In this document: piece after piece, positions 4,234 through 62,651 of the stretch
How positions within the stretch are numbered: the stretch's first letter is position 1
Layout of the letters: every line of letters starts with the position of its first letter
Origin: Balneolaceae bacterium
Lineage (GTDB): Bacteria > Bacteroidota > Rhodothermia > Balneolales > Balneolaceae
Length of the DNA stretch: 64,000 bases
Assembly: GCA_041656135.1 (NCBI GenBank)
Contig: JBBAEC010000004.1
Coordinates: 53,460-117,459 of the forward strand
Direction: 5' to 3'
Notes under the pieces: model-generated
Told to the model about the DNA's origin: nothing
The model's input: only the letters and a program-made list of their open reading frames with translations
Database searches by the model: none
Program-made: the position numbers and the translations under genes

Positions 4234-4288
4234 CCCGAATTATTCATGAATAAAAAAATAAAAATCGATGAATAATCCAGGTTAGTAG

Positions 4289-12654: not shown

Positions 12655-13081
12655 ATGTCATAAATAGTGTGTATAGAGGCTATGGGTAGCAAACAGAATT
12701 CCAAAGATGTGTTTCTAAAATAAATCCTGCTGAAATTTCGGTGGATTTGAATGCATCTTTTATAAAACAAGCCTACCCACCGATGTCTTTATTTAACCTG
12801 TTTACCCCGAGATAAATCTCGGGGCCATGTTTATTTTGAAAAAGCAACTTAACTCATTAAATAGACCCAATTTCATAGTGATAGATTTTGTTAAAATGAT
12901 GCTTGCGCTAAATATTGATCGCATTGCATAGATTCCTTTTCCTCGTTAGGAACGTCCCGTTCGTAATGTATGCCAGAACCACTGGTTCCTACACGTCATA
13001 ATGAATTCATGAGTATAGTTAACAACTCAGATTACATCATGTGAATAAAAATAACTCATACACACTTTTAGGGATACTACC
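12655..13081 (+). repeat. intergenic repeat family A, copy 2 (about 425 bp, carries an inserted family C module)
   Basis: Begins aaatagtgtgtatagaggctatggg (12662-) and ends with the inverted atacacacttttagggatactacc (13058-13081). It has the same internal hairpins as copy 1, including ccccgagataaatctcgggg at 12805-12824. The family C module is at 12941-12992. Confidence 0.7.
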
Positions 13082-13151
13082 TTCAGAGGAAGGCCCCTCT
13101 ACAGCGCACTATGTGCTCATAATCTTAGGAGTTTATAAAATCTCTTCCAAC

Positions 13152-13183
13152 AAAAAAAAGGGCTTCTCAAAAATGAGAAGCCC
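13152..13183 (-). terminator. rho-independent terminator of the amidohydrolase operon
   Basis: On the minus strand: gggcttctca / tgagaagccc 10-bp stem, 4-nt loop, followed by an 8-U run (plus-strand A-run 13152-13159). Confidence 0.8.
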
Positions 13184-13213
13184 TTTTATAATTTAGAAAC
13201 GAAGCGTTTGGTA

Positions 13214-14521: not shown

Positions 14522-14528
14522 GTCGTTC

Positions 14529-15908: not shown

Positions 15909-15909
15909 C

Positions 15910-18304: not shown

Positions 18305-19057
18305 ATGAATATAAATATATTTGAAAATTCTGAATTGGGAAGCCAATTTGTAGCAGAACAGATTCAAGCACTGATCAAGAAAAAAACTAAACTTACCGAA
18401 GAGGTGATACTTGGCTTAGCAACTGGTAGTACGCCAAAAGAATTGTACAAAAAGCTAGTTAGTATGTACAAAGCGGGTGAAATCAGTTTTGAGCAAGTTA
18501 TTACCTTTAATCTTGACGAATACCACCCCATGTCGCACGATAGCGAGCATAGCTATCACCACTTTATGAATCAGATCTTTTTTGATGCTGTAGATATTAA
18601 GGCTGAAAATACATGGATACCTAGTGGAGAAGTAGAGAAAGCACAGATTGAATCACATTGCAGAGAGTATGAGCAACAGATAGTAGATGTAGGTGGAATA
18701 GATCTTCAGTTATTAGGCATTGGAACGAATGGGCATATTGGTTTTAATGAGCCTGGTTCTACAATCGATTCTGTTACCCGTTATGTTGAATTGGATGAAC
18801 AAACAAGAATAGATGCAGCTGCTGCCTTTGGTGGAATTGATAATGTACCAAGAAATGCTATATCTATGGGTATAGATACCATCCTAAAAGCAAAAGAAAT
18901 TGTACTAATGGCGTGGGGAAGTGGTAAAGCAGAAATTATTAGAGACTGTCTATTTGGAGAAATTACCGCAGTTAAACCTGCTACATTTTTGCAAAAGCAC
19001 CCAAATGTACACATTGTATTAGATCGCGAAGCTGCGGCCTTAATTGATGTAGATTAA
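18305..19057 (+). CDS. nagB: glucosamine-6-phosphate deaminase
   Basis: LGLATGSTP, FNLDEY and LLGIGTNGHIGFNEPGS are diagnostic NagB motifs. Confidence 0.9.
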   Translation: MNINIFENSELGSQFVAEQIQALIKKKTKLTEEVILGLATGSTPKELYKKLVSMYKAGEISFEQVITFNLDEYHPMSHDSEHSYHHFMNQIFFDAVDIKAENTWIPSGEVEKAQIESHCREYEQQIVDVGGIDLQLLGIGTNGHIGFNEPGSTIDSVTRYVELDEQTRIDAAAAFGGIDNVPRNAISMGIDTILKAKEIVLMAWGSGKAEIIRDCLFGEITAVKPATFLQKHPNVHIVLDREAAALIDVD

Positions 19058-19107
19058 AAATGATTATAAAAATCCCCAATAATACCCCAACACAAAACAA
19101 AGGAGTT

Positions 19108-19977
19108 ATGATGAAAAAAATACTAACATTAATGGTAGCTGCATTTCTAGTGATGCCAAGCGTGCTTTTTGCACAGCCAGAAATACCTGTAGAGCAATGG
19201 AAAAATAGAACTATTTTGTTGATTGGGGCACATCCTGATGATGATGGTGGCTCGCACGGTACCATGGCTACCTTACAAGCGAATGGTAATCAAGTATATG
19301 TATTGCTACTAACAACTGGTAACGTGGGCACAAGCGATCCAACCATGACTAGAGATCGCCTTTCTCAAATTCGTCGCCAAGAAGAAGTTGACGCATTAAA
19401 AGAACTAGGAATACCAGAAGAAAATTACATTAACCTTGGGTATACCGATGGAATGCTTGAGTTTGCTGATCGCGAAGAAGTTGTAAAGCAAATTGTGTAT
19501 TGGATTAGAAAATTGAAACCTGAAACATTAATGAGTTTTGATCCTGGTTATGGTTACCAACAATGGCACAAAGCTGATCACAGAGCTGCTGCATACCTAG
19601 CTGTAGATGCTGCGCGTGCTGCTGAATGGAGATTAATTTTTCCAAGCCAAATTATAAATGAAGGCTTAGAGCAGCACAGTGTTACTGACTATTTATTTTA
19701 TAGCACAACAGGTGATGGTAAAAACACAGCAGTTGATATTTCTAAATTTGCAGAAAATAAAGTACGGTCATTAACAAAATATGTGAGCCAGTTTACTTCA
19801 GGCTTTAGTGACTATAGAGGTCCAAAGTTAAGTGACCTACCAGGAAATGAAGGTAAAGAGTTCGAAGATCGTATGCGTAAGCGTATTTTCGAAAGAGATA
19901 CTATAGATGGTAAGCCAGTTGAGCGATTCCGTTATTACAAAGGCGCACCTGATGGAGCCGGATCAAGAAGGAATTAA
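19108..19977 (+). CDS. secreted PIG-L/LmbE family de-N-acetylase (copy 1)
   Basis: The ATG at 19108 is preceded by aaggag (19100-19105). Signal peptide MMKKILTLMVAAFLVMPSVLFAQ. Motifs are IGAHPDDD and HKADHRAA. The ORF-track start at 19060 is less likely. Confidence 0.8.
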   Translation: MMKKILTLMVAAFLVMPSVLFAQPEIPVEQWKNRTILLIGAHPDDDGGSHGTMATLQANGNQVYVLLLTTGNVGTSDPTMTRDRLSQIRRQEEVDALKELGIPEENYINLGYTDGMLEFADREEVVKQIVYWIRKLKPETLMSFDPGYGYQQWHKADHRAAAYLAVDAARAAEWRLIFPSQIINEGLEQHSVTDYLFYSTTGDGKNTAVDISKFAENKVRSLTKYVSQFTSGFSDYRGPKLSDLPGNEGKEFEDRMRKRIFERDTIDGKPVERFRYYKGAPDGAGSRRN

Positions 19978-20007
19978 TTTCATCTTCATTTTATAGGAGT
20001 AATAAAA

Positions 20008-20038
20008 GCAGTAAGTTGTATAGCTTACTGCTTTTTTT
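20008..20038 (+). terminator. rho-independent terminator after PIG-L copy 1
   Basis: Stem gcagtaag (20008-20015) / cttactgc (20024-20031), then a 7-T run. Confidence 0.75.
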
Positions 20039-20188
20039 AATTTAGGTACATTATTTAACTTAAAATAAATGCTTATTTAGCATAAAATGCCTTAATTAGC
20101 GAGCTTTGGAACACATCCTGATTGTATTAACCGGAACAGATAAATTAAGGTAAGAATAACATTTTAATAGGAACGGAATTATAACGGT

Positions 20189-20821
20189 ATGCTACTTTTC
20201 GCATATCTTGGGGATAATAAGGATAGTGACGCACCTATTAAAGAATTAGAGTGTGTGGCAAAGATACGCGCTGGTGACGAACAAGCTTTTGAAGAGCTTT
20301 TTTTTGAGTACTACAATCAGTTAAGTAAATTTGCGAATACTATTACAAAATCGAGAGAGTATGCTAGAGATACGGTACAAGACGTATTTCTAAAAATTTG
20401 GCGGAATCGTGCAAATTTTGAAATCCGTGTTTCTATCAAAGTGTATTTATACCAAGCTGTACGCAACCAAGCCCTAAACCTTCTAGAGAAGCAAAAAACA
20501 AGGCAACGTCTTGTTGAAAATATACAACACGAAAGGGGAGTGTATGAGTCTTATAGTAATGAAGGTCATAATGCTGATGATACAAAGGTAAATGATTCTA
20601 ATACTTCAGAAGCAGCTTTAATACGAAGAGTGTGGGAGCTAGTAGAGCAAATGCCAGAACGCCGTCGCTTAGTATTTGAACTACATCGAAAGCATGGTTT
20701 AAGCTATAAAGAAATTGCTAAGGTATTAGAAATAGCCCCAAAAACTGTAGAGAACCATGTGGGGCAAGCTCTTCAATTTATTAGAGACCATATTGATATT
20801 AAAAAATATGATAATTCTTAG
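20189..20821 (+). CDS. ECF-type RNA polymerase sigma-70 factor
   Basis: Region 2 (DTVQDVFLKIWRN) and region 4 HTH (LSYKEIAKVLEIAPKTVENHV). Followed directly by a FecR gene. Confidence 0.85.
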   Translation: MLLFAYLGDNKDSDAPIKELECVAKIRAGDEQAFEELFFEYYNQLSKFANTITKSREYARDTVQDVFLKIWRNRANFEIRVSIKVYLYQAVRNQALNLLEKQKTRQRLVENIQHERGVYESYSNEGHNADDTKVNDSNTSEAALIRRVWELVEQMPERRRLVFELHRKHGLSYKEIAKVLEIAPKTVENHVGQALQFIRDHIDIKKYDNS

Positions 20822-20887
20822 GGGTAGAGCGGTTTTCATCTGTCTAACAATAAACTAGGAATCTCAAAACATCTCAAAATAACCGAA

Positions 20888-21949
20888 TTGAATACGAAAC
20901 TTCTGGTCAAATACTTGGCCAATGAGTGTAATAACGAAGAAATTAAAGCCATACGCGCTTGGCTCTCAGAAGACTCTGAGAACGAGAAAACTATGCGCGA
21001 CATTGAGAGAATTTGGGAAGTTTCTGCAAAAAAAGACGCCGCGGATGAGAAATTTAATACCGAGTTGGATTGGGCAGTGCTACAACATCGAATTGAAGAT
21101 AAAAACCTAATAAGTAGTACTCGTACAATCGGACGTGACACAATCCTTTCTCTAAACTCTAGCTGGGCTGTTGCTGCGCGTGTTGCTGCAATATTTATAT
21201 TAGCCGCTTTAGTTGGTACCTACACCTACAAAACTTTTTATATACAACCAGCTGTAGAAAGCGAGAATATTTTTAGAGAAATAACCATGGCAAAAGGTCA
21301 GCGTGGTGGGGTAACTCTTTCTGACGGAACTAAGGTATATTTAAATTCAGACAGTAAAATTTCTATACCAAATGTATTTGCCAACGATTTGCGTGAAGTA
21401 CATTTAGAGGGCGAGGCTTATTTTGATGTGGCTAAAAATCCAAATCGTCCATTTATTATTAAGGTAGATGGTGCTGTGGTGCAAGTTTTAGGAACGTCAT
21501 TTACAGTACGGAGCTATGCCGGCGAAGGTGCAGTACAAACGGTTGTAGAAGAAGGTGTGGTTTCGTTTAGGGCAGAAGGTAAGACATTAAATGAAGGCGT
21601 TATTTTAACAAAAGGGAAGTTGGGCCGACTCAATTTAGCCAGTAAGGAAATTGTTAAAGAAACGGTAGATGATTTAGAATTGTATTTAAGCTGGAAGGAA
21701 GGCTACTTAAAGTTTAATGAAGCAACGATGAAAGAAGTAGCGCGGCAACTAGAGCGCAAATATGACATAGAGGTTTCGTTTGCTACAAAAGAAATTGCTG
21801 ATTTACGTTTAACAGCCGAGCTAAAAAGCCGGTCTATTAATAGCGTACTACAAACAATATCAATATCACTAGGGCTGCAATACAAGCTCGATAACGATAA
21901 AGTTAAGTTCAGCAATCTAAAAGAAGGTAATCATAACAACTATGAGTAA
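20888..21949 (+). CDS. FecR family anti-sigma factor / transmembrane sensor
   Basis: TTG start. The N-terminus LLVKYLANECNNEEIKAIRAWLSEDSEN is typical, with a single TM segment (AARVAAIFILAALVG). FecR periplasmic motifs are present (LSDGTKVYLNSDS, GEAYFDV, V.VLGTSF). Confidence 0.85.
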   Translation: MNTKLLVKYLANECNNEEIKAIRAWLSEDSENEKTMRDIERIWEVSAKKDAADEKFNTELDWAVLQHRIEDKNLISSTRTIGRDTILSLNSSWAVAARVAAIFILAALVGTYTYKTFYIQPAVESENIFREITMAKGQRGGVTLSDGTKVYLNSDSKISIPNVFANDLREVHLEGEAYFDVAKNPNRPFIIKVDGAVVQVLGTSFTVRSYAGEGAVQTVVEEGVVSFRAEGKTLNEGVILTKGKLGRLNLASKEIVKETVDDLELYLSWKEGYLKFNEATMKEVARQLERKYDIEVSFATKEIADLRLTAELKSRSINSVLQTISISLGLQYKLDNDKVKFSNLKEGNHNNYE

Positions 21950-22037
21950 ACGTAGATTTACTTCAAATTTTGGAAGCGCTTTTATACTAAAAGAGCTTAT
22001 AAAAATACTAAATAATAACTAGTTATAGAGGACACGC

Positions 22038-25000
22038 ATGAGAACAAAAGTTACCAATATGATACGGACGGCTGTGTGTTTTTTCTTGGTGGGGGCTTTA
22101 ACACTCCACCTTGGGGAAGCATCAAGTGCTAATGCACAGCTAATAACATCCTTATCTAATAAGTTACAAACCAAATATTACTCTGTTGAGTTATACACCA
22201 ATAGTATTCCTGAGCTACAGAGTGTTATTACGGTTAAAAAGAAAGATGCACTTCTTAGTGAAGTGATTAAGGATATTGCTCAAAAATCTAACTTAGGTTA
22301 TGCGATAAACTCTGAAATGGAGATTCTTAACAAGCGTATAAATGTAGACCTCAAAGATATCTCTACAGGAGATGCTCTACAATACGTGCTACTAGGAACT
22401 GGTTATGAAGCAGCTATCTCCAATACTAGAGAGCTATTGCTACTAAAAACACCTGCTGCTGAAAAACAAATTGAAGCAGTTCAAAAGAAATTAACAGGAC
22501 TTGTACAAGACGCTTCTACAGGGGAAAGTATTCCTGCTGTAAACGTATTTGTAAAAGGTACAAACATTGGAACAAGTACTGATAATAATGGTAACTTTGA
22601 ACTTACTGTGCCAGACGATGCGGAGATCTTAGTATTCCGTTTTGTAGGTTACAAGTTGTTAGAAGTGCCTATTGTTAGTGGCCAAAACTATTATGAAGTA
22701 AATTTAGTAGAAGATCTAGTGTTCTTTGAAGATTTAGTAGTTGTAGGGTACGGTACTCAGCAACGTTCTGAAGTAACTGGATCTGTAACTTCAATTAGAA
22801 CAGAAGAAATTCAAAACGTTCCAGTTTCAAGTTTTGAGAATGCACTTCAAGGTAGAATGGCTGGTGTAAACGTAGCTGAGTCTACTGGTGAGCCAGGTTC
22901 ATCGCCACAAATTCTTATCCGTGGTACTGGTTCTATTTCTGCAGGTAACGATCCATTATATGTTATAGATGGTGTTCCTGTTGCAAAAGCTTCAAGCTTG
23001 CAGCCAAGTATTAGCACACAAAGAGCTTCTTTCCAAGCGCCAAGAGCTAACCCTATGTCTACGCTAAACCCTAACGATATTGAGTCTATTGAAGTTCTTA
23101 AAGATGCTTCTTCAGCTGCAATTTATGGTTCTAGAGGTTCTAACGGTGTTATTTTAGTAACTACCAAAAAAGGACAAGCTGGTAAAACTAAAGTCAATTT
23201 TAGTGGTTACGGTGGTGTTTCTACTGTGTTTAATAAACCAGACATAATGAACGCTGAAGAGTTGATTGCTTACACCAAAGATTCGCGTAACAATACTTAT
23301 GAGCAAGATATTGCTGATGGTAAAGTACCAGCGAACCCTAATTATAACCCTAACACGAACGCAGGTCGCCCAGCTGTTGGTGATCCTGGTTATAGTGCAA
23401 ACTACTTGATTCCAGAATCAATGGTTAACTGGGATGGTACCGATACTGATTGGTTAGATCTTATATTTAGTAATGCAACTATGCAGAACTATGATTTAAG
23501 TGTTTCTGGTGGTAATGATGTATCTACTTACTATTTCTCTACAGGTTACTTAAGCCAAGAGGGTGTTTTAGATGGTTCTGAATTTGACCGTTACACAGTA
23601 AAGTTAAACTTAACACACAAGTTAAGTGACATGATTGAATTAGGCACTTCTATCAACACTGCACTTACTCAGCATGATAGATTACCAGCAAACTCACCTT
23701 ACTTTGGTACACCTCCAGGTATTGTTTACTCAGCTTTGGTGCATTCCCCAACTGTTAAGCCATACAATGCAGATGGAACATTTAACCAAACAGACAACCA
23801 ATCACATCTAGGCGGTGCTACTACCTCTGCAAGTAACCCATTAGCAATAATGAACTACATTGAAGAAGAGTTTAACCAAACTAGAATATTTGGTAATACG
23901 TACGGTCAGTTGAACATAAATGAAAATTTAAGTTTCAAAACCTTAGTTGGTTATAATATTGACAACTCTGACCAGTCTTTTTATAGTGGAACAAAGTTTT
24001 TATACCGCGACCAAACTACATCTAACCCGTTTGCACAAAGTGGTGCCGGTAAGAGCTTTAACTGGTTATGGGAAAATACAGTAAACTATTCAAAAACTTT
24101 CAATAACGATCACTCTGTAAATGCTGTTGTAGGTTATTCAGCACAAAAGCAGACAGATCAAATGAATGTTATTTATGCTAGAGGCTTCACAGATGATCAG
24201 ATTAAAACCGTAAATGGTGGTATTATTTCTGGTGGTGACGACCTAAAAGAAGAGTGGAGTATTGCTTCTGCACTTGCAAGAGTTAACTATGCATACAAGA
24301 GCAAGTATCTATTTACTGGTACTATCCGTTCAGATAGATCTTCACGTTTTGGTGCAGATGATCAAACAGGTATTTTCCCATCATTCTCGGTTGGCTGGAG
24401 ATTAACTGAAGAGTCATTTATGCCAGGTAGAGATGTATTTAATGAACTTAAATTACGTGCAAGTTATGGTGTAACTGGTAACTTTGAGATTCCAAACTAC
24501 GGCTCGATTGGTCTGTTAGGAACAGCAAACTACCCATTTGGGAATAGCGTGAACATTGGAGTTGGACCAACAACATTAGCAAACCCAAATCTAACATGGG
24601 AAACAACCTATCAGCTAGATCTTGGTGTTGACTATGCCATGTTAAATGACCGTATTTATGGTTCATTCGACTATTACCAAACAACTACAAAAGATTTACT
24701 TCTATTTGTAAACGTACCTGCCTCAACTGGATACTCTACAGCACTAACCAATATTGGTGAGGTAGAAAATAATGGAGTTGAGTTCTCCATCACTACAAGA
24801 AACCTAGTTGGTAACTTCCAATGGGCTACAGACTTTAATATTGCTAAAAACAGTAATAAAGTCACAAAGCTAGGCCCTGAAGGTGATCCAATCTTGAGTG
24901 CTGGTGCTGCAGGCAACCGCCATATTACAATGATAGGCGAAGAGATTGGTAGTTACTACGGATATCAAGTTGCAGGTATTTACCAAAACCAAGCAGAAAT

Positions 25001-25649
25001 TGACGCTGATAATGCAGCTGCACCTGGCGGTAGATATGACTTATTAGCTCCAAACCCACGCCCAGGTGATTTTAGATTTAAAGACGTTGATGGCGATGGT
25101 AAAATTGATGCAAATGATAGAACAGTTATTGGTAGCTACCACCCTGATTTCACCTATGGTATTACTAACCGCTTTAATTACAAAAACTTTGATATGAGCG
25201 TGTTTATTCAAGGTGTTCAAGGCCGTGATGTGATGAACTTAACTAGCCGTCACATGCTTAATGGAGAGGCTAACTTTAACTCTTACTCAGCAGTTAAAGA
25301 TCGTTGGATGTCAGAGTCTAACCCAGGTAACGGTGAGCACCCAAGAGCAGATCGTAACTCTGCATCACACGGAAATAACAATAGAGAGTCATCTTATCAG
25401 GTTGAAGATGGTAGTTATTTGAAAATCAAAAATGTGACTTTAGGCTATACATTGCCACAAGATAAGTTTGGCAAATATGTTAGCAGAGCTCGTATATATG
25501 TATCAGGATCTAACTTAGCAATGTTTACAAAATACATTGGCTTTAACCCAGAAGTTAGTTTACAAACAAACAGCTTAACCCCTGGTGAAGATTATGGTGC
25601 ATATCCATTATCTAGAACTATCCAGGTTGGTATAGACCTCGCATTTTAA
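22038..25649 (+). CDS. susC: SusC/RagA family TonB-dependent outer-membrane transporter with N-terminal STN signalling extension
   Basis: STN-like segment (INVDLKDISTGDALQYVLLGTGYEAAI). Carboxypeptidase-regulatory-like domain (GLVQDASTGESIPAVNVFVKGT...TDNNGNFEL). TonB box region (DLVVVGYGTQ) and plug (GRMAGV). The 1203-aa barrel ends ...IDLAF. Confidence 0.9.
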   Translation: MRTKVTNMIRTAVCFFLVGALTLHLGEASSANAQLITSLSNKLQTKYYSVELYTNSIPELQSVITVKKKDALLSEVIKDIAQKSNLGYAINSEMEILNKRINVDLKDISTGDALQYVLLGTGYEAAISNTRELLLLKTPAAEKQIEAVQKKLTGLVQDASTGESIPAVNVFVKGTNIGTSTDNNGNFELTVPDDAEILVFRFVGYKLLEVPIVSGQNYYEVNLVEDLVFFEDLVVVGYGTQQRSEVTGSVTSIRTEEIQNVPVSSFENALQGRMAGVNVAESTGEPGSSPQILIRGTGSISAGNDPLYVIDGVPVAKASSLQPSISTQRASFQAPRANPMSTLNPNDIESIEVLKDASSAAIYGSRGSNGVILVTTKKGQAGKTKVNFSGYGGVSTVFNKPDIMNAEELIAYTKDSRNNTYEQDIADGKVPANPNYNPNTNAGRPAVGDPGYSANYLIPESMVNWDGTDTDWLDLIFSNATMQNYDLSVSGGNDVSTYYFSTGYLSQEGVLDGSEFDRYTVKLNLTHKLSDMIELGTSINTALTQHDRLPANSPYFGTPPGIVYSALVHSPTVKPYNADGTFNQTDNQSHLGGATTSASNPLAIMNYIEEEFNQTRIFGNTYGQLNINENLSFKTLVGYNIDNSDQSFYSGTKFLYRDQTTSNPFAQSGAGKSFNWLWENTVNYSKTFNNDHSVNAVVGYSAQKQTDQMNVIYARGFTDDQIKTVNGGIISGGDDLKEEWSIASALARVNYAYKSKYLFTGTIRSDRSSRFGADDQTGIFPSFSVGWRLTEESFMPGRDVFNELKLRASYGVTGNFEIPNYGSIGLLGTANYPFGNSVNIGVGPTTLANPNLTWETTYQLDLGVDYAMLNDRIYGSFDYYQTTTKDLLLFVNVPASTGYSTALTNIGEVENNGVEFSITTRNLVGNFQWATDFNIAKNSNKVTKLGPEGDPILSAGAAGNRHITMIGEEIGSYYGYQVAGIYQNQAEIDADNAAAPGGRYDLLAPNPRPGDFRFKDVDGDGKIDANDRTVIGSYHPDFTYGITNRFNYKNFDMSVFIQGVQGRDVMNLTSRHMLNGEANFNSYSAVKDRWMSESNPGNGEHPRADRNSASHGNNNRESSYQVEDGSYLKIKNVTLGYTLPQDKFGKYVSRARIYVSGSNLAMFTKYIGFNPEVSLQTNSLTPGEDYGAYPLSRTIQVGIDLAF

Positions 25650-25672
25650 TAAGAACTTATAAACGGATAATA

Positions 25673-27085
25673 ATGATGAAAAAACGATTATTAATATTAC
25701 TTATTCCCATGCTGGTTCTATCCTGCGGGGAAGATTTTACGCTACTGAGTCCTATTTCTGAAAGAAATACGGAAAGTTTCTATAAGACTTCAACCGATTT
25801 TGAAGCCGCTATTGTAGGTGCTTATGACGCCCTACAAAGTAACGGTACATTCGGTGTGAATTATATTCTACTTATGGAAATGCGAGCCGATAACGGCCAA
25901 AACGCAGGTGGAGCTACAGGGTTAGCTGCATCACTACAACAGATTGATGATTTTAAAGAAATCCCAACTGCTGGTGAATTCAAAACTACTTGGGCAGAAA
26001 CCTATAAAGGGATTTCTCGCACTAACTCTATTCTATCAAGAATAGATGATATTACCTTTCCAAATGAAAATTTAAAGAAGCAAATAAAGGGTGAAGCTCT
26101 CTTTATTAGATCTTTATTATACTATCACTTATCAGTGATATTTGGAAACGTAACAGAGCAATTTGAAGAGGTAGCATCTTTAAATTTTGAAATCAACCAA
26201 GTGCCAGCAAGTACAATATTTGCTCGTATTGCTTCAGACTTAACAGAAGCTGAAGGGTTACTGCCAGCAACTACCAACAATGGTAGAATTACAAGTGGTG
26301 CCGCGGCAGCCTTGTTAGGTAGAGTATATTTGCAAGATGGTAAGAAAGCAGAAGCAGTAGCTCCTCTTCAAAGAGTAGTTGATTCTGCTAAATATGAATT
26401 AGTAGACGATTACAAAAATATTTGGGGAGTAGATAACAAACTAAATAAAGAGTCTATCTTCGAAATTCAGTATAAATCTGGAAGCAGCGAAGGAAGTTCA
26501 TATACCGACATGTACACACCAAATGGTAAAGGTGGTGGCGTTGGTGGTGGAGTTTCTCCGGTAAGCCCTACTACTGATGTAAGAGGTTTATTTGATGCTG
26601 CAGCATTACTTGGCGACGAAAGAGCCGCTGGTACTATTGCAATATCTGTAGATACTACAGCAACACCTAACGATACTACCTTTTACGTGGGTAAATTTGA
26701 TAGTAAACCTACTAGCGCTTTTGATGCAGATAATAACTGGATTGAAATTCGTTATGCGGAAGTTCTACTAAACTTGGCTGAAGCATTAGGCGAAGGCATT
26801 CCTGCGTATAATCTCATTAATGAAGTTAGAGATCGTGCTGGTTTACTTCCTATTTCAGCAGTTACTCCAGGTACTTTTGAAGAAAAATTACTTAATGAGC
26901 GACGCTTAGAATTTGCTTTCGAAAACAAGCGTTGGGCAGATCTATTACGCTTTGGCAAGGCTAAAGAAGTAATGGCAACGCACCTGAATATTACACAGGC
27001 AGAAGTTAAATTGTTATTCCCTATTCCACAGGGTGAAATTGATGTGTCTCCAGATAAAATGACACAAAATTCTGAACATAATTAA
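25673..27085 (+). CDS. susD: SusD/RagB family nutrient-binding lipoprotein
   Basis: Lipobox LVLSCG. SusD-typical segments are AYDALQ, RAxxYYxL-like FIRSLLYYHL, ERRLEFAFENKRWADLLRFG and LFPIPQGEI. Immediately downstream of susC. Confidence 0.85.
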   Translation: MMKKRLLILLIPMLVLSCGEDFTLLSPISERNTESFYKTSTDFEAAIVGAYDALQSNGTFGVNYILLMEMRADNGQNAGGATGLAASLQQIDDFKEIPTAGEFKTTWAETYKGISRTNSILSRIDDITFPNENLKKQIKGEALFIRSLLYYHLSVIFGNVTEQFEEVASLNFEINQVPASTIFARIASDLTEAEGLLPATTNNGRITSGAAAALLGRVYLQDGKKAEAVAPLQRVVDSAKYELVDDYKNIWGVDNKLNKESIFEIQYKSGSSEGSSYTDMYTPNGKGGGVGGGVSPVSPTTDVRGLFDAAALLGDERAAGTIAISVDTTATPNDTTFYVGKFDSKPTSAFDADNNWIEIRYAEVLLNLAEALGEGIPAYNLINEVRDRAGLLPISAVTPGTFEEKLLNERRLEFAFENKRWADLLRFGKAKEVMATHLNITQAEVKLLFPIPQGEIDVSPDKMTQNSEHN

Positions 27086-27117
27086 GATATAGTAGTAGTA
27101 GTAGCTCTATCTCTCTT

Positions 27118-27144
27118 GCTGGGGCGGCCTGACGGCTGCCCAGC
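27118..27144 (+). promoter_or_regulatory. GC-rich stem-loop between susD and PIG-L copy 2 (possible mRNA processing/stability or partial terminator element)
   Basis: gctggggcggcc tgac ggctgcccagc forms about 11 bp with one bulge and a 4-nt loop. It is not followed by a T-run. It is preceded by an (agt)n microsatellite at about 27091-27105. Confidence 0.35.
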
Positions 27145-27184
27145 TATTTAAACAAACCAAAAACAAGATTAAAGATTTAGTAAA

Positions 27185-28090
27185 ATGAAAAAATATTCAA
27201 TTGCACTATTAATGATGTTTTGCATTGCCACGATGTCGGTAATTGCTCAAAACAAAACTACTGATGACGATAGAATCAGGGTTATAGCTATATTTGCACA
27301 CCCTGATGACGGTGATGCTAAAATGGGTGGAACTGCTGCACTTTTAGCTGAATTAGGCTATGCAGTAAAGTTTGTTGCTATCACCAATGGCGATGCTGGT
27401 CACCAATCAGAAGGTGGTGGCGCTCTTGCTAAAAGAAGACGTGCAGAAGCTCAAGAAGCTGCTCGTAGACTAGGTATTGATGAGTACAAGGTTCTAGACA
27501 ATCATGATGGCGAACTATTGCCAGAACTACACATCCGCCAACAAGTTATCCGTGAAATTAGAACTTGGAATGCTGATATAGTATTAGGTTTACGTCCTAA
27601 CGATTACCACCCTGATCACAGATATGCTGGCGTATTAGTACAAGATGCCGCTTACTTAGTGGTAGTACCAAATGTTACCCCAGATACTCCACCTCTTACA
27701 AAAAACCCAGTATTCCTTTATATGGAAGATGGTTTCCAAAAGCCAAATCCGTTTAGCCCAGATATTGTAGTAGGTATTGATAAAGTAATTGATAAAAAAA
27801 TTGATGGCCTAGATGCTCACGAATCACAAATGTATGAGTGGTTACCATGGGTTAGTGGTAGATTAGACCAAGTTCCAAAAGACAAAAAGCTTAGAAAAGA
27901 AATGGTTAAAAGAGGTTACGTAGAAAGAGGTACCCTTTCACCAGAGAAGAAAAAAGCTTTAGAAAAATGGTATGGCAAAGCTGAAGGCTCTAAGTTTAAA
28001 TATGCAGAATCTTTCGAGATTTGCGAATATGGCAAGCAACCTACAGAAGCAGAAATTCGCGAATTATTCCCAATGTTCAGTAAAAAATAA
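27185..28090 (+). CDS. secreted PIG-L/LmbE family de-N-acetylase (copy 2)
   Basis: Signal peptide MKKYSIALLMMFCIATMSVIAQ. Motifs are IFAHPDDGD and DYHPDHRYAG. Confidence 0.8.
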   Translation: MKKYSIALLMMFCIATMSVIAQNKTTDDDRIRVIAIFAHPDDGDAKMGGTAALLAELGYAVKFVAITNGDAGHQSEGGGALAKRRRAEAQEAARRLGIDEYKVLDNHDGELLPELHIRQQVIREIRTWNADIVLGLRPNDYHPDHRYAGVLVQDAAYLVVVPNVTPDTPPLTKNPVFLYMEDGFQKPNPFSPDIVVGIDKVIDKKIDGLDAHESQMYEWLPWVSGRLDQVPKDKKLRKEMVKRGYVERGTLSPEKKKALEKWYGKAEGSKFKYAESFEICEYGKQPTEAEIRELFPMFSKK

Positions 28091-28136
28091 TTCACAGAAG
28101 CTGTGAATAAACCATTCATTATTTAAAAATAATTTC

Positions 28137-29390
28137 ATGAAACGGAACTATTTCATTGTTGGCCTAATATTACTGGTTTTCTTTGTTATTTCATTTTTGA
28201 CCAATATATTAGGCGCCCTTAACCCAGCAGTAACAAAAAGTTTTGCCCTTTCTAACACCATGGTTAGCTTTCTTCCACTTGCATTTTTTATTGCATACGG
28301 GGTAATGTCTATACCAGCAGGTTTTATGGTAGAAAAATGGGGCGGAAAAAGAATGATGGTACTAGCATTTATGCTAGCTTTTGTTGGTGCAATGTTATTT
28401 GTTCTGTTTCCAAGCTTCAATGTATTCCTCATCTCACTATTTACAATTGGTGCAGGAATGGCTGCACTACAAGTTGTGATAAACCCTCTTCTAAGAGTTT
28501 CTGGTGGGGAAGCAAACTTTGCTTTTAACTCAGTTGTAGCTCAACTCATATTTGGTTTAGCTTCTTTTCTAAGTCCACTCATGTTTTCATATTTAGCAAT
28601 AAATATTGAGCAGGGCAACGTAGATAAACCATTTATTGGCTTGATGACAGGCCTTGTGCCAGAGTCTATGCCTTGGTTGTCTGTTTACTGGGTGTTTGCT
28701 TTAATAGTTCTAATAATGGTTGTTGTAATTGCTGTAACTAAATTTCCTGCAATTACTCTACAAGACGACGAAAAAGCTGGATCTAAAGCTAGTTATCTAG
28801 AGCTATTTAAAAACAAATATGTAATTCTCTACTTCCTTGGCATCTTTGCCTATGTAGGAACTGAGCAAGGCATCTCCTTTTGGATGTCTGGTTTTTTAAG
28901 TGAATATCATGGAATTGACCCAAGTAGTGCAGGTGCAAAAGCAGTTGCTAATTTCTGGGGATTAATGACTGTTGGTGCCGTATTTGGGCTAATAGCCATG
29001 AAGCTATTTGACAGTAAGAAAGTGTTAAGATGGTTTACCCTAGCCTCAATGGTTTCGGTTTTAGCAGGACTATTTGGCGGAGCAGGAGTAGCAATTTGGG
29101 CGTTTTCAATTTCTGGATTCTTCCTTTCAGTAATGTATCCTTCAATTGTATCACTAGGCTTAAATTCGGTTGAAAAACATCATGGTTCTTTCGCAGGAAT
29201 TCTAATGACTGGTATTGCGGGTGGTGCTGTGGTTCAGCTTCTAATAGGTGGGCTAAGCGATATCTTCACTCTAAAAATTGGAATGATGTTCATCTTTGTG
29301 ACTTTAGGATATATCCTGAGTATTAGTTTCTGGGCAAAACCATTAATTAGCAATAAAACGATAGACTTCGGCAAAAAATCTGAAGCCTGA
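28137..29390 (+). CDS. MFS sugar permease, FucP/GluP (glucose-galactose/fucose:H+ symporter) family
   Basis: 12-TM profile. The N-terminus FFVISFLTNILGALNPAVTKSFALSNTMVSFLPLAFFIAYGVMSIPAG matches the FucP-family signature pattern. Confidence 0.8.
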   Translation: MKRNYFIVGLILLVFFVISFLTNILGALNPAVTKSFALSNTMVSFLPLAFFIAYGVMSIPAGFMVEKWGGKRMMVLAFMLAFVGAMLFVLFPSFNVFLISLFTIGAGMAALQVVINPLLRVSGGEANFAFNSVVAQLIFGLASFLSPLMFSYLAINIEQGNVDKPFIGLMTGLVPESMPWLSVYWVFALIVLIMVVVIAVTKFPAITLQDDEKAGSKASYLELFKNKYVILYFLGIFAYVGTEQGISFWMSGFLSEYHGIDPSSAGAKAVANFWGLMTVGAVFGLIAMKLFDSKKVLRWFTLASMVSVLAGLFGGAGVAIWAFSISGFFLSVMYPSIVSLGLNSVEKHHGSFAGILMTGIAGGAVVQLLIGGLSDIFTLKIGMMFIFVTLGYILSISFWAKPLISNKTIDFGKKSEA

Positions 29391-29425
29391 GAAATTTAAA
29401 ATTGATAGACGGTTAAACTAAGTAA

Positions 29426-30286
29426 TTGAAAAAAAGAAATCTTATAGGTATAGATTTAGGCGCAACGAATGTGAGAGTTGCGAGAGTTCTAAACCAAGAA
29501 ATCGAATCAATTTCATCGCAACCCATCATTCAGAATGAAGACCATACCAAGCTTTTAAAACAAATTATTAGCTTGATAGAAAAGGAAATAACACCAGAGG
29601 TTTCTGCTATTGGAGTGGGTGTACCCAGTGTGGTAGATGTTGAGAAAGGGATAGTGTACGATGTGCAAAATATCCCTTCTTGGAAAATGGTACCACTAAA
29701 GGACATCTTAGAAGAGCGATTTAACGTTCCCGTTTATATAAACAACGACGCTAATTGTTTTGCCCTTGGCGAGAAATATTTTGGTAAAGCCCAGAACTAC
29801 AACTCTGTAGTAGGGCTTATTATTGGAACCGGATTTGGTTCAGGCTTAATTATGAATGGGAAATTATTTTCTGGGGCTAACTGTGGCGCTGGGGAAGTAG
29901 GAATGTTGCCCTATAAAGATTCCATCTTTGAACATTACTGTTCAGGTCAGTTTTTTGAAATCCATAAAAATACTGACGGTTTAACCGCATATAGTAAAGC
30001 CCTAGAAGGTGATAAAGAAGCTCTTGAAATGTACAAGGAGTTCGGTACCCACGTAGGCAACGGTATAAAAGCGGTAATGTATGCTTTTGATCCCGAAATA
30101 ATAGTATTAGGTGGCAGTGCAAGTAAAGCTCTTGCTTTATTTGAGCCACAAATGCGTGAGGCAATGTCTGATTTTGCCTACACACAATCATTAGAGAAAG
30201 TTAAAATAAGTGTCTCAGAGCTAGACCAAGTGGCCATTTTAGGTGCTGCAGCTCTTGCTCTAGACCAACAAATTCCAACTAAATAG
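29426..30286 (+). CDS. ROK family sugar kinase (no HTH domain; candidate GlcN/GlcNAc/glucose kinase)
   Basis: TTG start. ATP-binding motif GIDLGATNVRVA, plus NDANCFALGE and GAGEVGML. At 286 aa it lacks a repressor N-domain. The CxCGxxGC zinc motif is not evident. Confidence 0.8.
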   Translation: MKKRNLIGIDLGATNVRVARVLNQEIESISSQPIIQNEDHTKLLKQIISLIEKEITPEVSAIGVGVPSVVDVEKGIVYDVQNIPSWKMVPLKDILEERFNVPVYINNDANCFALGEKYFGKAQNYNSVVGLIIGTGFGSGLIMNGKLFSGANCGAGEVGMLPYKDSIFEHYCSGQFFEIHKNTDGLTAYSKALEGDKEALEMYKEFGTHVGNGIKAVMYAFDPEIIVLGGSASKALALFEPQMREAMSDFAYTQSLEKVKISVSELDQVAILGAAALALDQQIPTK

Positions 30287-30296
30287 GAAATATGTA

Positions 30297-32984
30297 ATGT
30301 ATAAACACATCGCACAACGCATGAAACTTAGTTTGTTAGTCGTTGGATTATTAGGAATACTGATTGGCTGCGGAAATAGTGGAACTAGCACTTTAGTTCC
30401 CATTACGGTAGAAAATAATACACCGGGTACCCCACAAGTTTTTGGTATTCCAATACCGAAAGGTGAATTATTCTCTCCAGATCATGTACGCGTATTATCT
30501 TCAAGCGGCAAAGAAATTCCTTCACAAATTACAAAAGTAAGTACCTGGGCACCTGCCGATAATAGCCTTAAATGGATTTGGGTATTTTTCTTTACCGAAG
30601 AAGGAACCGACTATAAAGTTGAGTACGGTAATTCAATAACTAATGGCCGTAATTACGATCAAGTTCTTACCGTTCGTAATAACCAAAGAGAAACAGGTGA
30701 AGTTGAAGTTGATACCGGACCTCTTAGGTTTATGGTTAAGAAAGGTGAAGGTGGTGGCTTTTTTAATGCCCCAGCTGGTAGTGGCTTTTTAGATAAAGTA
30801 GAACTAGATATTGATGGCAATGGTTTTGATGAATCAGATGTTATTGCAACAGGTGAGCCTGGCCGTAGTTCATTTTTAGATTTGCTAGATGATGCGGGTT
30901 TAGATCGCTCTAAAGCTGTTGTTACTCGTACACTAAAAGAGCTTGGAAGTGGCCCTTTACATGCAATTATTAGAGTAGAAGGCGATTATCATTATAACAG
31001 AAAAGACAATAATTCTGCGCCTTTTGTAACTAGAATTCATGCTTATGCAGGCAAAAGTTTTATTAAAGTACAGCATACCTTTGTTTATACTGGAGAGCCA
31101 GATCATCATAAAAAACAAGATGGCGAGTACGCTGTTATTGCCACTAAAAATGGCAAGTTAATTGATGAAAGTGTACTATCTAAAGACCCAGGTTTTACAA
31201 AACCTAATGATAGAATTGCTGCTTTAGGACTCTCTTTAAATTATAACATGGCTAAAGAAAAGACTATTACCACAGCTTATTATGATGGTAAATGGTGGAA
31301 TGAAGATGGCAGTAAAGTTGTGCAGTCACCATTAAAAGGTAATGCTTCGGTACTACAAACAGGGCCAAATCCATCACAAATACCACCGTTAGCAAATTCA
31401 TCGCCTGATGAGAGATTAGACGGAGTGTTTACATCTACTGTATCGGTTGGCGGTAGCAAAGATATTAATGCAGAACGTGCGCCAGGTTGGTTAGATATAT
31501 CTGACAATAAATGGGGCGTAACTGTTGGTTTTAAGAGTTTCTTCGAAGAATATCCTAAAGAAATTAAAGTAGATGACGAAGCTAATAAGCTTACTGCTTA
31601 CATCTGGACTCCTTCAGTAGAGCCATTGAGCTTTGCTAAAAAGGATAACAAGAATGATAGTGGAATGATTGCGAATTTTGCGCAAGGAGTAGCTAAAACA
31701 ACTGAGATGGTATTTAGTTTCCATAAGAAAAGCACTAACGAGCAGATTGAAAAAACAGCTCTGAGCTTTATGAAAGCGCCTGTTACTCATGCCGAGCCAG
31801 AATGGTATACTAAAAGTGAAGCATTTGGTAAAATGATGGCACGTACAGATAAATATGCTACTTACGAGCGTGGATTAGACTACAAATTTAAGTGGATGAA
31901 GTTTAACCAAAGTTGGGAGCCTTGGTATGGTATGCTTAATTATGGCGATAATTTAACGTATTACTATAATTATAACTGGTCTCAGTGGACGAACAACGAG
32001 CCTGGTAACGATTACATGTGGTGGTTACAGTACATTAGAACTGGTAATCCTAAATTTCACAGAATGGCACAAGCAGCTAGTATGCACACTATGGATGTTG
32101 ATAATATCCATTGGCCGAAAGATTACCACTACATTGGTGGTGAAAACGAATCTATTTTAGCTTTCCAAGCAGAAGAACTTCCAAAAGGTTCACCTTATGT
32201 TGGTATGGGACGTCGCCATGCAGACCAACACTTTACATCGTTGCTTAGCGCACACGTTTGGGTACCAGGTTGGATTAGCTCATACTACATAGATGCTAAC
32301 CACAGAGGCTTAGAAGTAGCTAAAGAAACAGGTGATTATTACGTTCGAAGAGTATTTGGCGATCATGGTTTACGTGGGCGTAGATTATACTTGTCCGTTT
32401 GGAACCTTGCTGAAATTTATGACGCAACCAAATTGCCTAAGTATGGCGATGAGTTAAAAGAACGTGTTGACCTAATGCTCGAGCTTCAAAATCACCCAGA
32501 TCAAGGCGGTGAAGTTGTGATAAACCGCTATGGCTACTCTCAAGTATATGTGGCTAATGGATTAAGAAAATATTACCAGCTTACTGGTGATGAAAATATT
32601 AAAACAGCAGTAGTAGATAACGCTCGCCGTTTAAGAGATAATCCTGGTCTTGATCATCAGATGGAATCATACTTATCATCTATTAGTAGTATGGTACTTG
32701 GTTACGAATATTCTGGCGAAAAAAGCTTACTTGACGAAGCTGTTAAAAGAGCAAAATATCTTAAGACTGATAAATTAGCTCAAGAATTTGATTCCTATGA
32801 GAACCAAAGAATTCTAGCGGATGCTCTAGAAGAAGCGAGTAATTTCCCAGGTGATCCGGGTGCACGTCGCCCACCAATTTGGCAAATAACAAATGGCTTA
32901 AGAGTATTTGGATGGACCAGCATCTATAACGTACCTTACCTAGAATACTGGATGAACGAAGCAAACTATCCAGCTGATAAATAA
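30297..32984 (+). CDS. large lipoprotein of unknown family; candidate glycan-active enzyme of the PUL
   Basis: Lipobox LLGILIGCGNSG (Cys25); the start could also be the ATG at 30321. The 895-aa ORF runs uninterrupted. The C-terminal half is aromatic/His-rich (WEPWYGMLNYGDNLTYYYNYNWSQWTNNEPGNDYMWWLQYIRTGNPKFH; GMGRRHADQHFTSLLSAHVWVPGW). I recognise no named catalytic motif. Confidence 0.8.
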   Translation: MYKHIAQRMKLSLLVVGLLGILIGCGNSGTSTLVPITVENNTPGTPQVFGIPIPKGELFSPDHVRVLSSSGKEIPSQITKVSTWAPADNSLKWIWVFFFTEEGTDYKVEYGNSITNGRNYDQVLTVRNNQRETGEVEVDTGPLRFMVKKGEGGGFFNAPAGSGFLDKVELDIDGNGFDESDVIATGEPGRSSFLDLLDDAGLDRSKAVVTRTLKELGSGPLHAIIRVEGDYHYNRKDNNSAPFVTRIHAYAGKSFIKVQHTFVYTGEPDHHKKQDGEYAVIATKNGKLIDESVLSKDPGFTKPNDRIAALGLSLNYNMAKEKTITTAYYDGKWWNEDGSKVVQSPLKGNASVLQTGPNPSQIPPLANSSPDERLDGVFTSTVSVGGSKDINAERAPGWLDISDNKWGVTVGFKSFFEEYPKEIKVDDEANKLTAYIWTPSVEPLSFAKKDNKNDSGMIANFAQGVAKTTEMVFSFHKKSTNEQIEKTALSFMKAPVTHAEPEWYTKSEAFGKMMARTDKYATYERGLDYKFKWMKFNQSWEPWYGMLNYGDNLTYYYNYNWSQWTNNEPGNDYMWWLQYIRTGNPKFHRMAQAASMHTMDVDNIHWPKDYHYIGGENESILAFQAEELPKGSPYVGMGRRHADQHFTSLLSAHVWVPGWISSYYIDANHRGLEVAKETGDYYVRRVFGDHGLRGRRLYLSVWNLAEIYDATKLPKYGDELKERVDLMLELQNHPDQGGEVVINRYGYSQVYVANGLRKYYQLTGDENIKTAVVDNARRLRDNPGLDHQMESYLSSISSMVLGYEYSGEKSLLDEAVKRAKYLKTDKLAQEFDSYENQRILADALEEASNFPGDPGARRPPIWQITNGLRVFGWTSIYNVPYLEYWMNEANYPADK

Positions 32985-56762: not shown

Positions 56763-56824
56763 GATAACTCCTGTTTATGTTTATTTTACTGAATTATTGT
56801 TTATTTGTATTCGATTGCTAATTG

Positions 56825-58084: not shown

Positions 58085-58149
58085 GTCAGTACCGGTATAT
58101 TTTATTGATTGCTAAATGGGTTCTCTTAACAGGCGATATGTGCGTTAAA

Positions 58150-62618: not shown

Positions 62619-62651
62619 TGAATTTATTTGTTGTTCAAACTCCTGTATTGT

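Follow-up and report, generated by a model that had tools for sequence, protein, structure and literature searches.

A SusC/D locus without glycoside hydrolases recurs across bacterial phyla and may serve uptake of a small acidic amino-sugar conjugate

We analyzed a stretch of 64,000 nucleotides from a Balneolaceae bacterium (assembly GCA_041656135.1, contig JBBAEC010000004.1, positions 53,460 to 117,459), referred to here as the window, in which a SusC/D gene pair lies among genes for amino-sugar catabolism. The locus is phylogenetically broad and codes for no glycoside hydrolase (GH). An earlier interpretation of the window, called here the original prediction, read it as a route that removes acetyl groups first and then consumes glucosamine (GlcN), by analogy with an archaeal chitin pathway. 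The GlcN half of that interpretation is supported, and the chitin-like substrate is not; the substrate is probably not of the chitin type. The reading we prefer, which falls just short of probable, is that of a conserved system of the SusC/D type for uptake and catabolism, controlled by a sigma and an anti-sigma factor; its target would be a small acidic amino-sugar conjugate and not a neutral polymer.

A conserved core without glycoside hydrolases

The locus in the window consists of the following features.

18305-19057, plus strand: nagB, cytoplasmic glucosamine-6-phosphate deaminase (TIGR00502, PF01182; no signal peptide)
19108-19977, plus strand: PIG-L1, LmbE/PIG-L (CE14-type) metallo-deacetylase or amidase, predicted to be secreted (PF02585, 90.9 bits)
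20004-20035, plus strand: intrinsic-terminator-like hairpin closing the nagB-PIG-L1 unit (stem-loop and T-run)
20189-20821, plus strand: extracytoplasmic function (ECF) sigma factor (Sigma70_r2, Sigma70_r4_2, Sigma70_ECF)
20888-21949, plus strand: FecR-type anti-sigma factor (PF04773, FecR; PF16344, FecR_C)
22038-25649, plus strand: SusC-like TonB-dependent transporter with an N-terminal signaling extension (Plug, beta-barrel, CarboxypepD_reg)
25673-27085, plus strand: SusD-like lipoprotein (PF07980, PF14322; lipobox LSC followed by GED)
27185-28090, plus strand: PIG-L2, LmbE/PIG-L metallo-deacetylase or amidase, predicted to be secreted, a core member (PF02585, 91.2 bits)
28137-29390, plus strand: MFS sugar permease (FucP/GluP/NagP-like), presumed GlcN importer (PF07690)
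29426-30286, plus strand: ROK-family sugar kinase without a helix-turn-helix (HTH) domain, presumed GlcN kinase (PF00480, 167.8 bits)
30297-32984, plus strand: PcRGLX-like three-domain lipoprotein of 895 residues with a polysaccharide lyase family 26 (PL26) fold, predicted to be periplasmic, presumed to split the conjugate (PF19501, PF21345, PF21346)
33003-34469, plus strand: DASS (INDY-type) Na+-coupled di/tricarboxylate symporter (PF00939, TIGR00785)

To see whether the gene set co-occurs in related genomes, a check that the original prediction had asked for, one genome per GTDB species was scanned. Relatives of the 895-residue protein were found in 242 stretches, and the best 80 loci were examined with 10-kb flanks. 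Genes were counted by tblastn with the window proteins and by clustering of all open reading frames (ORFs) in the loci; as many contigs end early, the counts are lower bounds. The 80 loci come from Balneolaceae, Salinibacter/Salinivenus (Salinibacteraceae), Sediminibacterium and other Chitinophagaceae, Pedobacter and Daejeonella (Sphingobacteriaceae), Cyclobacteriaceae, Fulvivirga, Saprospiraceae, Prolixibacteraceae, KSB1, and Caldithrix. Within the Balneolaceae, the family of the window, relatives of the 895-residue protein are 71-81% identical.

A core of SusC/D, PIG-L, MFS, ROK, and PcRGLX-like genes recurs across phyla, in at least six families or phyla. The MFS permease is encoded in 62 of the 80 loci and the ROK kinase in 59, followed by SusD (55), PIG-L2 (54), SusC (49), and the ECF/FecR pair (40). 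No further conserved enzyme family, no GH, and no NagA were found in the 80 loci. Gene order is rearranged by lineage and in Pedobacter reads ECF-MFS-ROK-PL26like-FecR-SusC-SusD-PIGL(833 aa)-DctA.

In the window, the first ten ORFs of the locus were found where the original prediction had placed them, all on the plus strand. The PIG-L1 start at 19108 was borne out by the translation and the upstream sequence, which show that the signal peptide begins there. The eleventh co-directional gene, the DASS symporter, had been overlooked. The gaps between genes, described as short, do measure 2-99 bp except between PIG-L1 and the ECF sigma gene, which are 211 bp apart. This spacing holds the very strong terminator-like hairpin, with a 14-bp stem, a 4-nt loop, and a T-run, which splits nagB-PIG-L1 from the rest, so that the ten genes form at least two transcription units and not a single operon. 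The family assignments stood in nine of ten cases by Pfam and NCBIfam, the exception being the 895-residue lipoprotein, and profile searches agreed that neither a GH domain of Pfam nor NagA is encoded in the locus or elsewhere in the window. A sigma-70 promoter scan was uninformative, the number of sites being no higher than in shuffled sequence, and no Rfam family or tRNA gene was found in the window.

A predicted carboxylate transporter accompanies the core

The DASS gene lies 18 bp downstream of the PcRGLX-like gene on the same strand. Its product scores 272.7 bits to PF00939 and 326.5 to TIGR00785 (cutoff 198.6), has two SNT motifs, and has NaDC3, NaDC1, NaCT, and VcINDY as its top PDB matches. 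DASS is encoded in 47 of the 80 loci. In 11 loci from Pedobacter, Daejeonella, and Chitinophagaceae an SDF-family gene replaces it; those of L080 and L052 exceed the curated cutoff of 513 bits for the DctA model NF002461, with 543 and 565 bits. One or the other, DASS or DctA/SDF, is thus present in 58 of the 80 loci, including a tblastn match in L025, and 46 of the 57 DASS/SDF genes from ORF clustering are no more than 200 bp from a core gene. In most loci lacking both, the contig ends on the side where the gene would sit.

The association of two unrelated transporter families with the same core, in at least six gene arrangements, is hard to call chance. Judged by curated cutoffs and carboxylate-binding motifs, both are predicted C4-dicarboxylate transporters, and this putatively shared substrate class implies that the pathway releases a C4-dicarboxylate in the periplasm.

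Rarer accessory genes point in the same general direction as this acid branch. In L051 (Sediminibacterium), an LctP lactate/glycolate permease and a MOFRL glycerate 2-kinase directly follow the PcRGLX-like gene (12662-15882). In L042 (3299-6562) and L058, from Cyclobacteriaceae/Agaribacillus, three genes are found between SusD and PIG-L2, coding for a secreted DUF2911-TPR protein, a Glyoxalase_3-domain protein, and a SolA-like N-methyl-amino-acid oxidase (233.7 bits, cutoff 257). Four Chitinophagaceae loci (L047, L054, L055, L059) encode a secreted TlpA/Redoxin thiol-disulfide oxidoreductase of 417 residues directly downstream of the PL26-like gene, which may bear on a thiol or disulfide substrate or be there by coincidence. 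A gene of the TlpA/Redoxin type is also present in L051 (15995-17248) and in L053.

The 895-residue protein has a remodeled PL26 fold

The 895-residue lipoprotein, which the original prediction had left in an unknown family, matches three PcRGLX-like Pfam domains above their gathering scores: PF19501 with 25.3 bits (cutoff 22.1), PF21345 with 56.7 (23.5), and PF21346 with 37.3 (23.8), the match to the toroid model covering only positions 2-124 of 411. By sequence it is related to PcRGLX (PDB 5XQ3) with an E-value of 1e-17, or 4e-26 when the family profile is used. An AlphaFold model of the protein (pTM 0.82, mean pLDDT 74.7) was compared to known structures with Foldseek. PcRGLX (5XQ3, 5XQO) was the sole full-length match (E-value ~1e-23, TM 0.63, 16-17% identity), and the other matches were partial, to beta-sandwiches or toroids. 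The protein has the three domains of PcRGLX, a RIFT barrel, a beta-sandwich, and an alpha/alpha toroid. Its orthologs are named "exo-rhamnogalacturonan lyase family protein" in NCBI and UniRef.

In the sequence of the PcRGLX substrate complex (5XQO), the Tyr of "LEIT[Y/F]EDWEPGF" at chain position 437 is changed to Phe relative to the wild type, and from this crystal variant Tyr437 of PcRGLX is inferred to be catalytic. The Tyr-Glu pair (Y437/E438 of the chain, Y81/E82 of the aligned fragment) is invariant in 16 PL26 relatives 43-74% identical to PcRGLX. It is absent from the family of the 895-residue protein in both hhalign profile-profile and MAFFT alignments, the segment itself being missing, and the PL26 block HTYDxxRHxWRYDVGG is likewise absent by alignment. 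The family has a strongly conserved loop of its own, D-S/G-G-M-x-x-N-F-A-Q-G-L-A-K-T-T-E, which contains no Tyr, and an insertion of ~25 residues after DNIHWP. Motifs common to PcRGLX and this family are WYGxxxYGD, NxE, RTG, and HTxxVD. In the 895-residue protein, D454, N460, K467, H597, D600, and D602 are invariant residues. Its active site is probably in the same place as in PL26 but remodeled. The 895-residue protein has the PL26 fold, yet it is not a canonical PL26 enzyme.

The window protein has a lipobox, and most of its orthologs are predicted to have plain SPI signal peptides. Among the PL26-like orthologs a lipobox is found only in Balneolaceae and a few others, and no acidic surface-export motif occurs there, so that the protein is predicted to be periplasmic. 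A surface-exposed endo-acting enzyme, as the paradigm of polysaccharide utilization loci (PULs) has it, was not found; the sole candidate for one is this PL26-like protein. With the PIG-L proteins predicted to be secreted as well, all processing would take place in the periplasm. A periplasmic location and the lack of a surface enzyme suggest a substrate small enough to be imported whole.

Amino-sugar enzymes and regulated uptake

The nagB product scores 265.6 bits to TIGR00502 (cutoff 236.9). Both PIG-L proteins have a predicted SPI signal peptide, with cleavage of PIG-L1 at MMKKILTLMVAAFLVMPSVLFA/QP, consistent with the original view that de-N-acylation is extracytoplasmic. The LmbE/PIG-L metal-binding and catalytic motifs are defined as HxDD and H(x)DH (PMC4101496). 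PIG-L2 has them as H39-P-D-D and H142-P-D-H, and PIG-L1 as H42-P-D-D and a variant HKADH with a one-residue insertion, which places both, PIG-L1 as a variant, in CE14 as PIG-L-domain proteins with the two motifs. The two are paralogs with 26% identity. The top PDB matches of PIG-L1 are the archaeal diacetylchitobiose deacetylases 3WL4 and 8BGN (E-value 1e-21); that of PIG-L2 is BshB/BcZBP (2IXD), with the archaeal deacetylases also matched (4e-17). The top NCBIfam match of PIG-L2 is BshB1.

The permease matches PF07690 and scores below the cutoffs of the gluP, fucP, and NagP models. The ROK kinase has no HTH, as had been said, since PF00480 spans residues 7-280 of its 286; it has no signal peptide, and the glucokinase, allose-kinase, and NagK models of NCBIfam all score below their cutoffs. 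In PMC11300592, Bacteroidales ROK kinases are reported to phosphorylate GlcN and N-acetylglucosamine (GlcNAc), and in vitro phosphorylation of GlcN by a B. thetaiotaomicron ROK kinase is cited. The GlcN branch of the original prediction gained support from the other loci. PIG-L, MFS, and ROK are strictly co-conserved with SusC/D across phyla, and nagB has been re-linked to the core independently. Together with the absence of NagA and GHs from the 80 loci, this makes a route from periplasmic GlcN through the MFS permease, the ROK kinase, and NagB a reasonable inference.

The PIG-L and nagB genes vary among loci. PIG-L1 is present in place of PIG-L2 in five Balneolaceae loci (L004, L006, L007, L011, L026), and the two are adjacent in one KSB1 locus. 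In L040, L044, and L066 nagB directly follows the PL26-like gene. A NagB-PIG-L fusion of 640 residues without a signal peptide adjoins the core in L031 (12776-14698), and a fusion is found upstream in L030; in the window, unlike these, nagB is separate and next to the secreted PIG-L1. In six loci of Pedobacter/Daejeonella (L046, L070, L072, L073, L077, L080; in L080 at 18583-21084) an 833-residue secreted protein replaces PIG-L2. Its N-terminal PIG-L domain has the mycothiol-conjugate amidase Mca as top match, and its large C-terminal region is uncharacterized. Daejeonella L046 also encodes two PcRGLX-like paralogs, one on either side of a PIG-L2 gene.

In the window, SusC and SusD are separated by 23 bp, and the PIG-L (CE14-type), PL26-like, and ECF/FecR genes are linked to the pair. 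A susC/susD pair with linked carbohydrate-active genes and a dedicated regulator is what characterizes a PUL of the SusC/D paradigm, and it is found here in 49-55 of the 80 loci. SusC is 47-79% identical across phyla. The original prediction gave SusC an STN signaling extension; the STN match is below threshold (18.3 vs 28.4 bits), but the N-terminal extension of ~100 residues is real. In related loci the orthologous SusC is 1173-1235 residues long where ECF/FecR is encoded and 1083-1097 where it is not, and this tracking of length with the regulators supports a genuine signaling extension.

Proposed pathway and candidate substrates

From the gene identities, the predicted locations, the co-conservation, and the fold and PL26 motif loss of the 895-residue protein, we infer the enzymatic specificities and the substrate as follows. 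SusC/D would import the intact substrate, and its binding would be signaled through the N-terminal extension of SusC to FecR and on to the ECF sigma factor. Zinc amidases of the PIG-L/LmbE family, one or two of them, would act in the periplasm and strip the N-acyl group, acetyl or larger (e.g. cysteinyl), from a GlcNAc-type residue. The PL26-fold enzyme would there part GlcN from a carboxylate-bearing aglycone, either through hydrolysis or through beta-elimination within the acid. GlcN would then pass through the MFS permease to the ROK kinase and NagB, yielding fructose-6-phosphate with no need for NagA. The freed C4-dicarboxylate, of the malate or fumarate type, would enter by DASS and in other lineages by DctA.

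To our knowledge, bacillithiol (Cys-GlcN-malate, with GlcNAc-malate as precursor) is the one well-known natural N-acyl-GlcN glycoside of a C4-dicarboxylate. The LmbE superfamily includes BshB, the GlcNAc-malate deacetylase, and Bca, which cleaves the Cys-GlcN amide (PMC4101496); these bacillithiol enzymes, together with BshB1/BcZBP as top matches of PIG-L2, make bacillithiol the leading candidate. Bacillithiol and N-methyl-bacillithiol are reported to be among the most widespread bacterial thiols, including in Bacteroidetes, at ~0.2-2.6 nmol per mg dry weight (PMC6282198). Our hypothesis, an unproven one, therefore puts forward Cys- or N-methyl-Cys-GlcN-alpha-1,2-L-malate (the bacillithiol family), its disulfide, and GlcNAc-malate as leading candidate substrates. 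The specific proposal, possible but rather doubtful, is TonB-dependent scavenging of bacillithiol or N-methyl-bacillithiol, probably as the ~800-Da disulfide or as S-conjugates from dead cells; the size of the disulfide would account for the TonB-dependent uptake. The secreted BshB/Bca-like PIG-L amidases would strip the (N-methyl)cysteinyl or acetyl group, and the PL26 fold would have been repurposed as a GlcN-malate lyase, giving GlcN and fumarate, or as a hydrolase, giving GlcN and malate. A glycoside at C2 of malate could be cleaved by beta-elimination to fumarate following polysaccharide-lyase logic, which would sidestep the poor hydrolysability of 2-ammonium glycosides. Such a pathway would be spread over the Balneolota, Rhodothermota, Bacteroidota, KSB1, and Calditrichota.

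Several observations weigh against an acidic conjugate, and against bacillithiol in particular. A TonB-dependent SusCD system is unusual for a metabolite of 400-800 Da, and no cysteine transporter is linked to the locus. Both PIG-L proteins carry signal peptides and fall well below the cutoff of 182.5 bits for membership in the BshB1/BshB2 (bacillithiol deacetylase/amidase) equivalogs, with 112.8 bits for PIG-L2 (BshB1) and 74.7 for PIG-L1. Nor can the PIG-L proteins be typed by the docked malate contacts of BshB: Arg53 is kept but generic to the family, and Arg109, the contact implicated by docking, is a Tyr in PIG-L2. The nearest solved structures are equally non-discriminating, archaeal Dac and BshB being matched about equally. 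A lyase mechanism should not be assumed for a protein that lacks the PL26 Tyr-Glu. The TlpA-like genes are common in Bacteroidota and possibly chance neighbors, and neither DASS nor DctA is present in several adequately flanked loci (L042, L058, L051, L053, L069). A literature search covering PL26/PcRGLX, CE14 in PULs, bacillithiol catabolism, chitosan PULs, and LmbE/SusD found no publication on this locus type, which appears to be uncharacterized.

Other substrates were considered. In the model of the original prediction, chitooligosaccharides would enter via SusCD, be deacetylated by PIG-L in the periplasm in the manner of Thermococcus Dac, and be cleaved by the 895-residue protein, then an unknown glycan-cleaving step and here a new PL26-fold exo-glucosaminidase acting as a hydrolase, ahead of GlcN import, kinase, and deaminase. 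The similarity of PIG-L1, and also of PIG-L2, to archaeal diacetylchitobiose deacetylases is in keeping with this, as is the combination of MFS, ROK, and NagB without NagA, which suits GlcN catabolism. The (alpha/alpha)6 toroid is a common GH fold, and an invariant Asp is kept in the loop where the PL26 Tyr-Glu is lost, compatible with a switch to hydrolysis. Even so, we regard this model as unlikely. Neither chitin nor chitosan explains the C4-dicarboxylate transporter that recurs as DASS or DctA in 58 of the 80 loci, and no GH18, GH19, GH20, GH46, GH2, GH35, or chitin-binding module was found in the 80 loci or in the window. There is no surface enzyme to make oligomers; this and the predicted periplasmic location of the PL26-like protein speak for a small imported oligomer or conjugate and against chitin or another polymer. 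Structurally, the 895-residue protein has a single relative, a lyase acting on uronate, and by the terms of the original prediction itself its exo-rhamnogalacturonan-lyase fold counts against the model.

That same relative could instead point to oligomers of an acidic glycan built of GlcNAc and uronate, for instance a bacterial or algal polymer of heparosan-like, hyaluronan-like, or teichuronic type, with a PL26-fold exo-lyase cutting the GlcN-(1,4)-uronate bond. The Bacteroides heparin PUL offers a precedent for such a route, since a ROK kinase there takes over the GlcN that is set free in the periplasm. The WYG..YGD, NxE, RTG, and HT..VD motifs suggest that the location of the active site is retained, and PL26 exo-lyase cuts at O4 of uronate from the reducing end (PMC13501991). 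This is quite unlikely given that the 80 loci contain no GH88/GH105 unsaturated-uronyl hydrolase, KduI/KduD/KdgK/KdgA, or uronate isomerase. C6 keto-uronates are also not among the known cargo of DctA or INDY-type carriers, the PL26 Tyr-Glu is missing, and there is no endo-acting surface lyase. Very unlikely, in our estimate, is another cell-wall or glycoconjugate fragment containing GlcNAc, such as muropeptides, GlcNAc-Asn of N-glycoprotein origin, or succinylated poly-N-acetylglucosamine, in which the acid would be D-lactate, aspartate, or succinate. DctA-type carriers also take aspartate or succinate, L051 encodes a permease of the LctP lactate family, and peptidase genes are numerous in this neighborhood of the window, one of them coding for an S13 D-Ala-D-Ala carboxypeptidase. 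However, LctP is found in one to three loci only, the peptidase neighbors are not conserved beyond the Balneolaceae, and the core has no linked gene for MurQ, AmiD, NagZ, glycosylasparaginase, or an esterase. An ordinary PL26 locus for the use of rhamnogalacturonan I (RG-I) is extremely improbable. The names of the orthologs and the PcRGLX Pfam domains above threshold would suggest one, but the identity to PcRGLX is only 16-17% and the conserved partners are all amino-sugar genes. Genes of a pectin or RG-I context (GH28, GH105, and those for rhamnose or galacturonate catabolism) are found neither in the window nor in the 80 loci, and the latter also lack GH106 and CE12. We rejected a canonical RG-I lyase locus on the absence of this context and of the PL26 Tyr-Glu and HTYDxxRHxWRYDVGG, and the automatic name of the orthologs very probably misdescribes this clade.

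Other genes in the window

Upstream of the locus, on the minus strand, three tandem genes of the amidohydrolase superfamily (13214-17583) code for proteins of 435, 486, and 557 residues, the last two ORFs overlapping by ~80 nt. None was accepted as NagA: their scores to TIGR00221 are 21-55 bits (cutoff 225.65), their strand is opposite to that of the locus, and the related loci do not conserve them. They adjoin genes for an M28 peptidase (11440-12333, minus strand), a DUF4953 Met-zincin (8017-10500, plus strand), and an S9-like hydrolase (7024-7905, plus strand), in a peptidase-rich area. Further upstream (2311-5239, plus strand) is a gene for a 640-residue protein with a GCS2-like (glutamate-cysteine-ligase family 2) region and tandem CBS domains, followed by one for an AstE/aspartoacylase-like deacylase.

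On the other side, all on the minus strand, are a clear bacterial TANGO2 homolog (41732-42496, 255 bits), an ORF of 499 codons with no Pfam or NCBIfam match (48340-49839), and the end of the dcw cluster with ftsZ, ftsA, ftsQ, murC, murG, ftsW, and murD (55419-63998). A GT4 gene at 54100-55134 was rejected as BshA (55 bits vs 273.7). An ORF of ~180 residues grouped as cluster 9 was treated as spurious, being antisense within the DASS gene and without a Pfam match.

Implications and relation to known systems

SusC/D loci are usually read as polysaccharide degraders defined by their GHs. The locus type described here has none, and it is kept at 50% identity or more over several phyla from marine, hypersaline, freshwater, and soil habitats. 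Its secreted CE14-type amidases, remodeled PL26-fold enzyme, and C4-dicarboxylate carrier imply a class of substrate, small conjugates of amino sugar and organic acid, that would escape PUL annotation as now practiced or be given a wrong label, pectin or chitin, by it. Were the substrate bacillithiol, this would be the first described catabolic route for a major bacterial thiol and a new activity of the PL26 fold, and it would give access to a so far unexplored question, the natural recycling of the low-molecular-weight thiol most widespread among bacteria. Cultured strains are available for direct testing: Gracilimonas tropica DSM 19535, Gracilimonas halophila KCTC 52042, Daejeonella oryzae DSM 19973, Pedobacter caeni DSM 16990, and Salinibacter ruber.

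Parts of the locus resemble systems already described. PcRGLX of Penicillium chrysogenum (CAZy family PL26; 5XQ3, 5XQG, 5XQJ, 5XQO) has the same N-terminal barrel, beta-sandwich, and (alpha/alpha)6 toroid as the 895-residue protein, whereas the latter lacks the Tyr-Glu of 'TYED' and is encoded in an amino-sugar and dicarboxylate context and not a pectin one. With the Bacteroides SusC/D loci that signal across the envelope through ECF/anti-sigma pairs, and with FecIRA, the locus has in common an ECF sigma factor, a FecR, and an extended TonB-dependent transporter, though its STN domain scores only below threshold. The mucin O-glycan PULs described and the ferric citrate uptake system have a cargo and enzyme set different from those of this locus.

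The chitin pathway of Thermococcus kodakarensis uses the deacetylase Dac, the exo-glucosaminidase GlmA, a GlcN kinase, and GlmD. It has only a principle in common with the route proposed for this locus: an LmbE deacetylase acts before the glycosidic cleavage, and direct phosphorylation and deamination of GlcN bypass NagA. Here, deacetylation is predicted to be extracytoplasmic, the kinase is of the ROK type, and the deaminase is of the NagB type. There is no chitinase and no GH35/GH2 exo-beta-D-glucosaminidase as in Thermococcus, no GH domain being found in the locus or the window, and SusC/D, the ECF/anti-sigma pair, and a C4-dicarboxylate transporter are additional. The chitin utilization locus (ChiUL) of Flavobacterium johnsoniae encodes NagB, pairs of SusC/D, and a sugar transporter of the MFS in the inner membrane, along with two GH18 chitinases (one secreted), a periplasmic GH20, and a two-component regulator, and it relies on NagK and NagA from elsewhere in the genome (PMC5127042). 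SusC/D, MFS, and NagB are thus common to both; GH18, GH20, the two-component regulator, and NagK/NagA are absent from this locus, and ChiUL is without PIG-L, a PL26-like gene, and a dicarboxylate carrier.

BshB and Bca/BshB2 have the same fold as PIG-L2 and the same HxDD and HPDH zinc-binding and catalytic motifs. Their substrate is GlcN(Ac) joined to a C4-dicarboxylate, which fits transport in two branches as proposed here. In the cell, BshB and Bca act in the cytoplasm, in biosynthesis or detoxification, whereas the PIG-L proteins described here are predicted to be secreted and are encoded in a catabolic uptake locus.

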